Below are positions 5,927 to 9,575 of a DNA stretch of 25,803 bases, in pieces. The translations under genes were made by a program, and so were the position numbers. This DNA comes from Escherichia phage CBA6, in sequence record KM389300.1. One strand, 5' to 3'. The notes beneath the pieces are model-generated. The model had not been told where the DNA came from. It was given only the letters and a program-made list of their open reading frames with translations, and searched no databases. Each line of letters opens with the position of its first letter. Within the stretch, counting starts at the first letter, position 1.

Positions 5927-6499
5927 TTATTTCTTCAGATCAGGCCACGCACCAGAGGTCGCAGTAGACCCAGCTGGGGGAGCAGACTCAAGATCGGGAG
6001 AACCCGACTGAGTAACAACAGTGGGATCTTTGTTAACCACTTTGACCCCAAACTGTTTGAGAGCATCCACAGCTTGCGCCTTCCGGCTATTGCTTTTGTA
6101 ATGGTTGTACCCCTTGATACCGAATGATGCACTAATTGCTGTCAATAGCGAAGCAGTATACCAATCAGGCGCTGTTTCAAGGGCTTGCATACCATCAATT
6201 ACTGCTTTGATGAAATCCCCTTTATGATACTCGGTGGGGAACATTAGAAGTTCCACAACCGGAGCGATCATAACAAGGATAGCGGGAACAGCCAAAACGA
6301 TTGTCCAGAATTCATCTTTCCAAGATCCGCCGACTTCGGTAATCTTAGAAAGTTCCCATTCTGAAGAAGACTTTATTGCCTCCAGTTTAACATCGTGTTT
6401 AGCCTGAACAATTTCCCGCTTATATTGCACCAAATCAGTCCCAAGATTCCAGAGTTGCTTTAGCGCCCCTGGAATCATGCTCACAAAGGGGATTGCCAT
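5927..6499 (-). CDS. membrane protein (191 aa), central hydrophobic helix; divergent from the DNA polymerase gene
   Basis: Start ATG at 6499 (MAIPFVSM...) with SD GGAG 7 nt upstream; central TM segment FWTIVLAVPAILVMIAPVV; Ser/Thr/Pro-rich C-terminus; ORF extends to 6559 but without SD. Confidence 0.55.
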   Translation of the reverse strand: MAIPFVSMIPGALKQLWNLGTDLVQYKREIVQAKHDVKLEAIKSSSEWELSKITEVGGSWKDEFWTIVLAVPAILVMIAPVVELLMFPTEYHKGDFIKAVIDGMQALETAPDWYTASLLTAISASFGIKGYNHYKSNSRKAQAVDALKQFGVKVVNKDPTVVTQSGSPDLESAPPAGSTATSGAWPDLKK

Positions 6500-6528
6500 T
6501 TTAAACTCCTTGGTCATTGAACGTTCCT

Positions 6529-6568
6529 CGGTTAAATTACGGGGACGTGCTGACGGCACGGTTAACCG
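6529..6568 (+). promoter_or_regulatory. structured leader of the DNA polymerase gene, candidate translational operator
   Basis: Inner hairpin CGTGC (6546..6550) / GCACG (6556..6560) with loop TGACG, nested in an outer stem CGGTTAA (6529..6535) / TTAACCG (6562..6568) whose 3' end abuts the SD GGAG (6568..6571); ATG at 6579. Confidence 0.4.
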
Positions 6569-6578
6569 GAGACAAACA

Positions 6579-9575
6579 ATGACTGTTTTCTATACGAACG
6601 TTGCCCGACAGGGTAACGACCTTCTGATTCGTATCGCAGACGACAACGGCAATCGCCGCATGTTGCGTAAGAAATTCGAACCCACCTTGTATTTACCCAC
6701 AGCTGATTATTCCAAAGTTGAAAAGATTGGCCTCCTCAATGAACCGTTGGTGTCTAAAAAGTTTGCATCAATGCGAGACGCTGACAACTATCTTGAGGAG
6801 TACAAGGAGGTCGAAGGGGCTGCGGTGTATGGACAAACGGATTATGCATATCAATTCATCGCCCATAGTTTTCCTGGGATGATCACACCTGATTATTCAA
6901 ATATCCACATCGCCAACGTGGATATCGAAGTGTTCTCGGCTGGTTGGCGTGACGGAGAAATGACTAAAGGTCCATTCCCACACGCAACGATTGAATCTCA
7001 CACGTTTAAAGGCAGCGAGGCGCGGGTTCGTCGTTTCCATAAGCAAGTACTGGCCAACCATGATTTCGTTCGGGAGCATTTCCCTGGTTCCTTTATTTCC
7101 AATAACGTGACTGACCAATTCCCTATAATTGACAGTAACGGTAAAATCACACAGAACATGAATGCGGCGTTCCCTATTACGCTGATACAGCTCCAAGATA
7201 TGAATACCAATAAATTCTATGTCTGGGGCATGCCGTGTTCCAAGGATCGCCATAAATTCAAATATGACCCCAATGATGAAGAAGTCGGCGGTCTTGAGGT
7301 TGAATATAAAGAATATACGACGGAACAAGATCTGCTTCGCGCCTTCTTAGATTACTGGTCGGAACGTCAATTTGACGGTTGGACGGGGTGGAACATTGAA
7401 ACGTTCGATAGCCCCTATTTGGTTGAACGAATTATGCAGGTTCTTGGTGAATCTGAAGCCCAGCGCCTCAGTCCTTGGGGTAAACTCAAGAAACGTTTCA
7501 TCAAAGACCGTAAAGGCGACGTGACTTCTTATCAATTCGTGGGTTGTCCTATGATGGACTACATGCAAGTTTACAAGAAACACACTTACACCACCCGCGA
7601 AAAATACTCACTGGACTGGATCGCTTATTGTGAACTCGGTGAGAAGAAGTTGGATTATAGTGAAAGCAAATCATTGTATGACCTTTATTTCAATGATTAT
7701 TGCAAGCATACGCGATATGGTATCAAAGACGTCAAGCTGGTGTGGCGCTTAGAACAAAAACTGCGTTTGATACAGCTGATGTTTGTATTGGCTTATCGCA
7801 CTAAATCCAACTATGAAGACGGTCTCGGCACTGTAGCACCGTGGCTGGCAATGTGCTATTATCGTCTTTATGAGAAGGGGATTGTCCCGAAAATCCAGCG
7901 CGTCTATGATGGGCCAACAGATTTTGAAGGCGCATATGTCATGGAGGTTGCCCCAGGGATATATTTCTGGGTCTTCTCTGAGGACTTAAACTCCCTGTAT
8001 CCCCACATCATACAGCAATACAACCTTGGTCCAGAGACTATCGTTTCTGATAAGCACACACGCCGTGATATTATTGAGGCCATGTGTGAGGAATTGACCA
8101 AAGCGATGAATGATATGACAACGCCGATGAATAAACGTCGTCATCTCAAAAATCTTCACGACAAGTTGCAGCGTGCTATTGATGAACGCATACAAGTTGT
8201 TGATGAATTGGTCGCGCTGGGCGAATTCCATTTTGAAACACTACGCCGATATAACGTTTCGTTTACCCCGAACGTTCAGTTCTTCAGTAATGAGAAGATG
8301 TCCTTCCTTTCCGAAATTATGCGAGGCATATACGCTGACCGTAAAGGAGAGAAAGCAACTGGCCTGAAGTATGAGCAATGGGCTGGTTGGTGTAAGGAAA
8401 TGTCTAAAGGTGATTTCCACCTTGAATCCGCCATGAAGTCTCGTTTCTACGATCCTGAATGGTATGAAGAACACAAGCACATCGATCTTGATCACCTGAC
8501 TGAAGTCATGCACAAGTGGGAAGATCTGGGGGTTGCTCAAGATACGTTACAACAAGGTCTGAAGATCTTGATGAACGCAGGTTATGGCGCAATCTCCAAC
8601 GTCTGGTTTAAAGAATACTTCAACATCAACATCGCTGAAGCAATCACCACTTCCGGCCAGCTGATCAACAAATGGAACAAACGCCACACCGATGATTATC
8701 TGAACAAACTTTGCGGCACTACTGGTCAGGATTTTGTTATCGCGGGTGATACTGACTCCAACTACATTTGCATTGAACGTCTGGTCAAGCAATTGTGGCC
8801 TGAAGAAAAGGATCATCACAAACTCGTTGATAACATTGACCAATGGATCAAAGAGAATTACCAGCCAAAAACCAGTGAATGGGCGCAGTTGTTGTGTAAT
8901 ACCATGAACGGGTTTGAGCAGCGCATGGTCTGGGAACGTGAGGTCATCGCATCGTCTGCTGTATGGCGAGCCAAGAAGATGTATTGCATGGCAGTATACG
9001 ATAGCGAAGGCATCAAGTATGAGAAGCCAAAGATCAAATTCAAAGGTCTGGAAGCGCGTAAATCTACAACGCCGGAATGGTGTCGTGAGCGTCTGGTTAA
9101 ATGCTATGAGAAAGTTCTGCTGGGGACGGAGGCTGAAGTTCAGGAATTGATCGCGGGTTATAAGAAGGAATATATGGAATTAACCGTGGATGATATTGCT
9201 CAAGCCTCTGGCGTTAGTGATATTGAGAAGTGGTTAGACGGCAACGGAAATTATATCAGTGGCACACACTTTGCTGCCAAGGCTTGTATTATGTACAACA
9301 AGCTGATAGACAAGCATGAAGACCTCGGTCTCCCGCCGATAGAATCTGGCGATAAGGTTAAAATCATTAACCTGAAACCTGGGAACCCTGTGGGGAACGA
9401 CCGCATAGCCTTCCCTGACTTCCTCCCTCCGGAGTTGGGGCTGGATAAGTGGGTAGATTACCACACCACGTTTGAAAAGACCTTCATAGAGCCGATTCAG
9501 TCTATTCTAGACGTGGTTGGTTGGTCTCACAAACGTCGAGTTAATCTGTTGTCCATGATGGGCAAGAAAGGTTGA
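6579..9575 (+). CDS. DNA polymerase, family B (T4 gp43-like), 999 aa
   Basis: N-terminus MTVFYTNVARQGN... resembles T4 gp43 MKEFYISIETVGN...; exo I motif VDIEVF; motif A DLNSLYPHII; motif C IAGDTDSNYI; start at 6579 chosen for SD GGAG (6568..6571) rather than the SD-less ORF start at 6477. Confidence 0.93.
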   Translation: MTVFYTNVARQGNDLLIRIADDNGNRRMLRKKFEPTLYLPTADYSKVEKIGLLNEPLVSKKFASMRDADNYLEEYKEVEGAAVYGQTDYAYQFIAHSFPGMITPDYSNIHIANVDIEVFSAGWRDGEMTKGPFPHATIESHTFKGSEARVRRFHKQVLANHDFVREHFPGSFISNNVTDQFPIIDSNGKITQNMNAAFPITLIQLQDMNTNKFYVWGMPCSKDRHKFKYDPNDEEVGGLEVEYKEYTTEQDLLRAFLDYWSERQFDGWTGWNIETFDSPYLVERIMQVLGESEAQRLSPWGKLKKRFIKDRKGDVTSYQFVGCPMMDYMQVYKKHTYTTREKYSLDWIAYCELGEKKLDYSESKSLYDLYFNDYCKHTRYGIKDVKLVWRLEQKLRLIQLMFVLAYRTKSNYEDGLGTVAPWLAMCYYRLYEKGIVPKIQRVYDGPTDFEGAYVMEVAPGIYFWVFSEDLNSLYPHIIQQYNLGPETIVSDKHTRRDIIEAMCEELTKAMNDMTTPMNKRRHLKNLHDKLQRAIDERIQVVDELVALGEFHFETLRRYNVSFTPNVQFFSNEKMSFLSEIMRGIYADRKGEKATGLKYEQWAGWCKEMSKGDFHLESAMKSRFYDPEWYEEHKHIDLDHLTEVMHKWEDLGVAQDTLQQGLKILMNAGYGAISNVWFKEYFNINIAEAITTSGQLINKWNKRHTDDYLNKLCGTTGQDFVIAGDTDSNYICIERLVKQLWPEEKDHHKLVDNIDQWIKENYQPKTSEWAQLLCNTMNGFEQRMVWEREVIASSAVWRAKKMYCMAVYDSEGIKYEKPKIKFKGLEARKSTTPEWCRERLVKCYEKVLLGTEAEVQELIAGYKKEYMELTVDDIAQASGVSDIEKWLDGNGNYISGTHFAAKACIMYNKLIDKHEDLGLPPIESGDKVKIINLKPGNPVGNDRIAFPDFLPPELGLDKWVDYHTTFEKTFIEPIQSILDVVGWSHKRRVNLLSMMGKKG

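Follow-up and report, generated by a model that had tools for sequence, protein, structure and literature searches.

The DNA polymerase gp43 of phages T4 and RB69 reportedly represses its own synthesis through an autogenous operator in the gene 43 leader, a system said to have been worked out by Andrake, by Tuerk and Gold, and in the Karam lab, and the T4 operator was the original target of systematic evolution of ligands by exponential enrichment (SELEX). When read from the sequences, the gene 43 leader of T4 and RB18 has the order TATAAT-ATATCAAG-AGCCU-AAUAACUC-GGGCU-AUAAACUAAGGAAUAUCU-AUG. The start of the T4 middle promoter P43 has been mapped at coordinate 29933 (PMC2988021). This start lies 2-4 nt before the operator hairpin, and the end of the hairpin is 18 nt from the AUG. 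The operator loops of T4 and RB69 have UAAC in common, and the top 10 bases of the two operators are identical; a SELEX variant has the loop CAAC and RB49 has UAAA, and the 3′ AC or AA is critical for binding (review by Uzan and Miller, PMC3014915). Here, we analyzed a stretch of 25,803 nt from Escherichia phage CBA6 (KM389300.1; the whole stretch is called the window), which is a genome segment of a Kuttervirus (Ackermannviridae; Vi01/CBA120/Marshall-like), and we describe a short conserved hairpin immediately upstream of its DNA polymerase gene. The hairpin is likely to be part of a promoter-proximal cis-regulatory element of polymerase expression that acts on the sense transcript.

The hairpin has a stem of five base pairs and a loop of five nucleotides (Table 1). 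When folded alone, it has a predicted free energy of -7.9 kcal/mol (z = -3.36), and an optional sixth pair, U6551.G6555, would leave a triloop. When the predicted transcript is folded, it contains this hairpin followed by an unpaired linker, and the predicted mRNA reads, in order, a hairpin of 5-6 bp, 7 unpaired nt, GGAG, another 7 nt and the AUG. The distance from the end of the hairpin to the AUG is 18 nt in the window and 18-21 nt in its relatives. The regions compared came from Kuttervirus, from the Aglimvirinae phages LIMEstone1, A221, LHE287 and ZQ1, from Taipeivirus-like Klebsiella phages, from the Serratia phages IME250, KNP4, phiMAM1 and 3M, from the Erwinia phages Bue1 and phiEa2809, from an unclassified 7.5-kb IMG/VR contig (L058), and from the Vibrio phages K414 and VAP7, and the pair counts were made on 14 distinct sequences. 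Across six lineages, 15 of the 17 columns of the block 6545-6561 (ACGTGCTRACGGYACGG) were invariant, compared to 7 of the 46 intergenic columns that lie outside the two conserved blocks of the region (Fisher p = 1.4e-7). This degree of conservation of the hairpin block extends to relatives whose polymerases are about 54-56% identical in their first 200 residues. In the pair counts, the hairpin was paired in 100% of the cells, with four pairs that never vary and one pair that changes from G-C to G.U. Conservation is as strong in the loop and in the asymmetric flanks (a preceding A and a following GGWTAA) as in the arms of the stem. Two loop sequences occur: UAACG in CBA120, the Aglimvirinae, Taipeivirus, Miltonvirus, the Erwinia phages and L058, and UGACG, which the window shares with some Kuttervirus. 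A scan of metagenomes for wider sampling gave no confirmed relative, and in phage phiW-14 there are only 17 nt upstream of the polymerase gene. Another hairpin, of 8 bp, lies inside the coding region at 6599-6618 (CGUUGCCC-GACA-GGGUAACG, polymerase codons 7-14), and it contributes to the z score of -3.65 of the predicted 76-nt 5′ end. This coding hairpin was not retained as a candidate: the consensus fold keeps five of its pairs, and it shows G.U changes and some broken pairs, none of them compensatory. Similarly, a weak helix that would sequester the Shine-Dalgarno (SD) sequence (GGAGACA/UGUUUUC, 6568-6590, reaching codons 2-4 with the AUG in its loop) was rejected, being absent from the consensus fold of the relatives.

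The gene upstream of the polymerase gene is divergent, and the whole intergenic region, from the polymerase ATG to the divergent ATG at 6499, is 79 nt long, so this region must contain the promoter or promoters. The early promoters of CBA120 and the promoters at points of divergence had not been identified, and it was noted that the divergence points must carry control signals not yet known (Kutter et al. 2011). We found -35-like and -10-like hexamers separated by a 16-nt spacer and placed 6-7 nt before an invariant A in Kuttervirus, Aglimvirinae, Taipeivirus, Miltonvirus, Nezavisimistyvirus and the metagenomic contig L058. The -35 hexamer has the variant TTGTCA in Miltonvirus, the Erwinia phages, L058 and Vibrio phage K414, and the number of matches to the consensus rises in the distant relatives, to 10/12 in the metagenomic contigs L058 and L059 and to 11/12 in K414. 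The second conserved block of the region, 6505-6520 (14 of 16 columns invariant), spans the SD of the leftward gene and the plus-strand -35-like hexamer. These results suggest that the region probably carries a positionally conserved host sigma-70-like promoter for the polymerase operon, and the predicted transcription start, from the promoter geometry and the invariant column, is A6545, which would make the hairpin +2 to +16 of the mRNA. A reading as a late promoter, which is how LIMEstone1 is annotated at this spot, was tried and rejected. There is no conserved T4-late-like TATAAATA, and a -35 element is conserved at a fixed distance, and a promoter of the sigma-70 type is therefore preferred. 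On the minus strand inside the intergenic region, no conserved sigma-70-like site for a leftward promoter was found. A weak leftward -10 recurs at about +127 to +130 of the polymerase gene and was not accepted, as it coincides with conserved D-Y-S codons.

Two further properties of the promoter region were observed. The -10 region TAAATTA (6533-6539) reads TAnnnT on both strands, a symmetry that has been described for bidirectional bacterial promoters, and no leftward -35 was found. The discriminator (6539-6544) is rich in G+C in all lineages (ACGGGG, ATGCCC, ATCGCC, TACGGG) and is not conserved in sequence; a high G+C content of the discriminator is typical of promoters that respond to growth state and to guanosine tetraphosphate (ppGpp).

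The initial annotation had described the 50 nt before the polymerase ATG as a nested leader, in which the hairpin is enclosed by an outer stem CGGTTAA/TTAACCG and which also contains a 10-bp palindrome, and had proposed that it may be an operator equivalent to that of T4. All of the features that it listed are present in the sequence, each in its place. The reality of a 50-nt leader is doubtful, since it would sit inside the 79-nt divergent region that must hold the promoter or promoters. In particular, the outer stem has its 5′ arm within the spacer and the -10, upstream of the predicted start A6545, so that this arm would not be transcribed. The minimum free energy (MFE) fold of 6500-6600 does show both nested helices, a point in favor of a two-helix leader (6529-6535 paired with 6562-6568, around the inner hairpin) that would sequester the region adjacent to the SD and act as the operator. 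But the z score of this fold is only -1.05, with 27 of 200 shuffles as good, and the fold depends on its context: in a 57-nt context another helix takes the place of the outer stem (z = -1.59). In the 14 sequences the outer helix was paired in 66% of the cells, two of its seven pairs being broken in 9/14 and 11/14 sequences, and the whole-structure measures of the nested structure were not above those of shuffled controls. Close Kuttervirus relatives have the 5′ arm CGGCTAA (T to C) with the 3′ arm unchanged, a change that is thus uncompensated. In other genera the 3′ arm is ATAACCT or TTAAAAT and the palindrome is gone too, its site reading CGGATAACCT in Aglimvirinae and Taipeivirus and CGGTTAAAAT in Miltonvirus. 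Consistent with these counts, the RNAalifold consensus contains the inner hairpin only, without the outer helix. It is hardly credible, in our view, that the complete nested leader works as an operator. The palindrome CGGTTAACCG does exist but is not rare by chance, as about 25 perfect 10-bp palindromes are expected in 25.8 kb by our own arithmetic; for CGGTTAACCG itself with up to one mismatch, 0.53 occurrences are expected. Both the nested fold and the palindrome were therefore rejected, on the folding statistics and the comparative pair counts. Taken together, these results show that the inner hairpin is real and strongly conserved, and that the outer stem, like the palindrome, is incidental.

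The polymerase itself was compared with solved structures. The top match was PDB 1clq with related chains (E = 6.5e-112), which we take to be RB69 gp43, and chains of what is presumably T4 polymerase (9ea3, 1noy) matched at about 5e-105. By these matches, the window polymerase is a clear homologue of RB69/T4 gp43. The hairpin also shares its anatomy with the T4/RB69 operator. Both stand in the leader of a gene for a gp43-type family-B polymerase, both are hairpins of about 5 bp followed by a single strand that leads into the ribosome-binding site, and in both the 18 nt between hairpin and AUG include the SD. Transcription starts 2-4 nt before the hairpin in T4, where it was mapped, and 1 nt before it in the window, where it is predicted. 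The tetranucleotide UAAC occurs in the 5-nt loop of most Ackermannviridae, and the loop UGACG of the window retains the 3′ AC. As in T4 and RB69, the hairpin is unique in the genome and is conserved as a sequence and not merely as a shape. The likeness proposed by the initial annotation thus fits the inner hairpin, by anatomy and conservation; what it had claimed for the nested structure and the palindrome found no support. The two systems also differ in several respects. The stems are unrelated (CGUGC/GCACG in the window and AGCCU/GGGCU in T4), the promoter is sigma-70-like in the window and a MotA-dependent middle promoter in T4, and the upstream gene is divergent here, whereas it is co-oriented there (regA, and 43.1 in RB18). 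Binding and repression by the polymerase, as known for T4 and RB69, are proposed for the Ackermannviridae by analogy.

Our tentatively favored explanation, which we hold with reserve, is that the hairpin may be a gene-specific RNA operator, probably an autogenous one, that is bound by the polymerase; it is the analogy with T4 and RB69 that names the polymerase as the binding protein. According to this explanation, host RNA polymerase would initiate at about 6545, and the nascent 5′ end would fold into the hairpin 6546-6560. A protein would recognize the hairpin and the linker in a sequence-specific manner, and its binding beside the SD would tune the translation of the polymerase. As in T4 and RB69, polymerase not occupied with primer-template DNA would bind the hairpin and the adjacent single strand and occlude the ribosome-binding site, and the polymerase would thereby repress its own translation.

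The number of copies bears on whether the element serves one gene or many. Each Ackermannviridae contig of IMG/VR has the 17-mer once, as does the complete CBA120 genome of 157,304 bp, where the next-best site has 4 mismatches and lies inside a coding region. A scan of the window with up to 3 mismatches gave one match. Outside of the family, IMG/VR contained 8 matches in unrelated GC-rich contexts, which is about the number expected by chance. The idea of a repeated motif or regulon was rejected on these single copies per window, contig and CBA120 genome. In addition, positions 6350-6750 were compared with Rfam, allowing E values up to 10, and this returned noise only, with a best score of 16 bits compared to a gathering score of 50. 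The single copy indicates a gene-specific element and not a regulon, which fits autogenous control and opposes a nut-like site or the site of a global regulator. An antitermination site of the nut/boxB kind, which would recruit an N-like factor and make RNA polymerase resistant to termination, is thus very improbable. Such a site does share some properties with the hairpin. The boxB elements of lambda and P22 are stems of 5 bp with a pentaloop, a shape that is like that of the window hairpin, and the position at the head of a long operon would be suitable. Antitermination has also been suggested for related phages (Kutter 2011). However, the hairpin is present once in 157 kb and no similar hairpin was found at other early operons, no boxA-like partner was identified, and its loop is unlike the GNRA-like loops of boxB. 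No N-like gene was identified either, though an N-like protein was not searched for.

Since the stems are palindromic, a hairpin is possible on either transcript, and the same letters could also be a DNA dyad. The only substitution in the stem is a C to T in the Erwinia phages Bue1 and phiEa2809. In the sense RNA this variant gives a G.U pair and the hairpin is retained at -5.9 kcal/mol, whereas in the antisense RNA it gives A.C and the hairpin is lost (-0.1 kcal/mol). The variant also disfavors the idea, which was rejected, that the hairpin belongs to the 5′ untranslated region of a leftward transcript. This strand asymmetry, the conserved loop and flanks, and the lack of a conserved minus-strand promoter to the right of the hairpin give a modest lean to an RNA on the sense strand, and we infer that the element acts as RNA. 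A serious rival, although on balance a rather unlikely one, is an operator at the DNA level, where a dimeric transcription factor of the phage or the host would bind CGTGC-N5-GCACG and repress or time the rightward promoter, the leftward promoter or both. A perfect 5-5-5 inverted repeat that is kept by identity and without covariation is the expected signature of a protein-DNA site. The half-sites are 10 bp apart from centre to centre and cover +2 to +16 of the polymerase promoter. This 15-bp inverted repeat, in which one helical turn separates the half-sites, overlaps the predicted transcription start between divergent genes, as do the operators with dyad symmetry that dimeric helix-turn-helix repressors bind in divergent promoter regions. 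Just past the start in a divergent control region is the classical position of a repressor, and the remark by Kutter et al. (2011) on control signals at points of divergence is consistent with it. On the other hand, conservation is no lower in the central 5 bp and in the asymmetric flanks than in the half-sites, and the change in the Erwinia phages breaks the dyad symmetry and spares the pairing of the sense RNA. Only one such site is present in 157 kb, and no regulator gene was found adjacent to it; Pfam and PHROGs assigned no function to the five leftward neighbor genes and found no recognizable DNA-binding domain in them. Conservation of the centre and of the flanks is atypical of a dyad operator, whose centre is free. 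The same 17 nt might additionally be a DNA site for the leftward promoter.

At the RNA level, the hairpin could also be a purely structural stabilizer at the 5′ end, which would shield a long early transcript from decay by RppH and RNase E with no dedicated binding protein. Stem-loops of the ompA type protect E. coli mRNAs when few unpaired nucleotides precede them. The window hairpin begins at the predicted +2 of a long mRNA, only 1-2 nt from its predicted 5′ end, a distance short enough for 5′ protection, and the homologous promoter of CBA120 heads a long rightward block of genes. However, it is structure and position that define ompA-type stabilizers, and in a structural role the stem could covary and the loop could vary freely. 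In the window hairpin, by contrast, the sequences of stem and loop are frozen from one genus to the next: 15/17 positions are fixed, including the loop, while their neighbors drift. Moreover, the Vibrio relatives, which have an even better promoter, have no hairpin. A stabilizer with no other role is therefore improbable. Protection from 5′-end-dependent decay would nevertheless be compatible with an RNA operator, and a hairpin at the very 5′ end would provide it as well.

Several results weigh against an RNA operator bound by the polymerase. The support for a sense-strand RNA comes from one evolutionary event, a transition, with an estimated likelihood ratio of about 2-6, and the invariance of both arms is equally expected of a DNA dyad site. 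No compensatory change was found in the stem, where pairing is kept through invariance of the sequence; the covariation that the initial annotation had proposed as a check is thus absent from the inner stem as well, and the outer stem is broken without compensation. The hairpin is missing in the Vibrio Ackermannviridae (K414, VAP7). The promoter hexamers of the window are weak, with 8/12 matches to the consensus, and a stricter promoter scan of the window did not call TGGTCA-16-TAAATT. In the literature searched, neither a mapping of start sites nor a study of this hairpin was found for the Ackermannviridae. As for the likeness to T4, a direct comparison of ACGUGCUAACGGCACGG and AGCCUAAUAACUCGGGCU aligned only the tetranucleotide UAAC, the loop has 5 nt (or is a triloop closed by U.G) compared to 8 nt in the T4/RB69 operator, and the loop of the window itself contains UGAC and not UAAC. 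In addition, some T4-related polymerases do not autoregulate (PMC3014915).

Table 1. Features of the region between the divergent genes and of its counterparts in relatives (window coordinates).
Feature	Position	Strand	Remarks
ATG of divergent leftward gene	6497..6499	-	190 aa, phrog_2524, function not assigned
SD AAGGAG, leftward gene	6505..6510	-	invariant alignment columns; adjoins opposite-strand -35
-35-like hexamer TGGTCA	6511..6516	+	same position and 16-nt spacer in every lineage
Outer-stem 5′ arm CGGTTAA	6529..6535	+	overlaps promoter spacer and -10; judged outside any RNA structure
-10-like hexamer TAAATT	6533..6538	+	same spot is the -10 of a 'putative late promoter' in the LIMEstone1 GenBank record
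Predicted transcription start A	6545	+	invariant; 7 nt past last -10 base; from promoter geometry
Conserved hairpin	6546..6560	+	stem CGUGC 6546-6550 / GCACG 6556-6560, loop UGACG 6551-6555
Palindrome CGGTTAACCG	6559..6568	+	contains outer-stem 3′ arm TTAACCG (6562-6568); in part of Kuttervirus only; judged incidental
Linker GUUAACC	6561..6567	+	predicted single-stranded between hairpin and SD; G-W-T-A-A part conserved
SD GGAG, polymerase gene	6568-6571	+	7 nt before AUG; ribosome-binding site annotated in Marshall record
DNA polymerase gene	6579..9575	+	998 aa, family B, phrog_262; ATG 6579-6581
Aglimvirinae, Miltonvirus promoter			TKGTCA-16-TTAAAT
L058, Erwinia phages promoter			TTGTCA-16-TATTAT
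Vibrio K414 promoter			TTGTCA-16-TATAAT; no hairpin

A 1.5-kb query around the hairpin matched 267 phage records at 80-99.6% identity. In CBA120, five leftward genes lie on one side of the divergent region and the rightward block led by the polymerase gene lies on the other. This block comprises orf237-orf260, a length of about 12 kb, and then, past the end of the record, orf001-039, with rIIA, rIIB and topoisomerase genes. The ATG of the leftward gene at 6499 is kept in all relatives, and the annotations of CBA120 and LIMEstone1 start there. The GenBank records of Marshall and Maynard begin this gene at an ATG at 6517, a codon that is TTG in the Aglimvirinae and Taipeivirus. In the Aglimvirinae LIMEstone1 (L054), A221 (L099) and ZQ1 (L101), the polymerase is annotated as a 1434-nt first part only; the gene appears to be split or interrupted, and the conserved promoter and hairpin are still found upstream of the first part.

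Other relatives show different arrangements at this locus. In the Vibrio Ackermannviridae (L022 for K414; L023 and L060 for VAP7), the divergent arrangement is retained without the hairpin, an RpoS-like sigma factor is encoded just past the leftward gene, and VAP7 has an XRE-family regulator in addition, which suggests that this locus is controlled in another way in these phages. Five environmental T4-like relatives with about 37-40% identity (L061, L073, L085, L089 and L095) have a G+C-rich hairpin followed by a T-run about 60-100 nt before the polymerase ATG. This hairpin overlaps a near-consensus promoter (TTGACA-17-TATAAT or TATACT), and the arrangement is that of an overlapping terminator-promoter module without an operator-like hairpin. 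In the RB49-like phage Phi1 (L107, 235-303), a consensus TTGACA-17-TATAAT lies about 40 nt before gene 43 and is followed by a possible hairpin, CUUUC-GUAAGU-GAAGG, with its 3′ arm overlapping the SD; Phi1 thus repeats the pattern of a promoter and then a hairpin, with UAA in the loop.

Vi01/CBA120-like phages are widely used in biocontrol against Salmonella, E. coli O157, Dickeya and Klebsiella, and their early gene control is essentially unmapped. This analysis provides a candidate early promoter, found at a conserved position in all of the lineages examined, together with a predicted start and a sharply defined element of 17 nt. Early regulation is uncharted in this phage family, and the hairpin is probably one more control element of a known type. 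Should the polymerase bind it, a second, independent natural example would join the T4 gp43 operator, with a bearing on how family-B polymerases recognize RNA; if the polymerase does not bind it, the element would still mark the control point of the operon that starts the replication genes. It is conceivable, although we put it forward with considerable doubt, that RNA-mediated self-repression of T4-type polymerases extends beyond the Straboviridae to the enterobacterial Ackermannviridae, through an unrelated 5′-terminal pentaloop hairpin that keeps a UAAC core. If this is true, RNA binding would be an ancient property of this polymerase family, or the same control logic would have arisen by convergent evolution.

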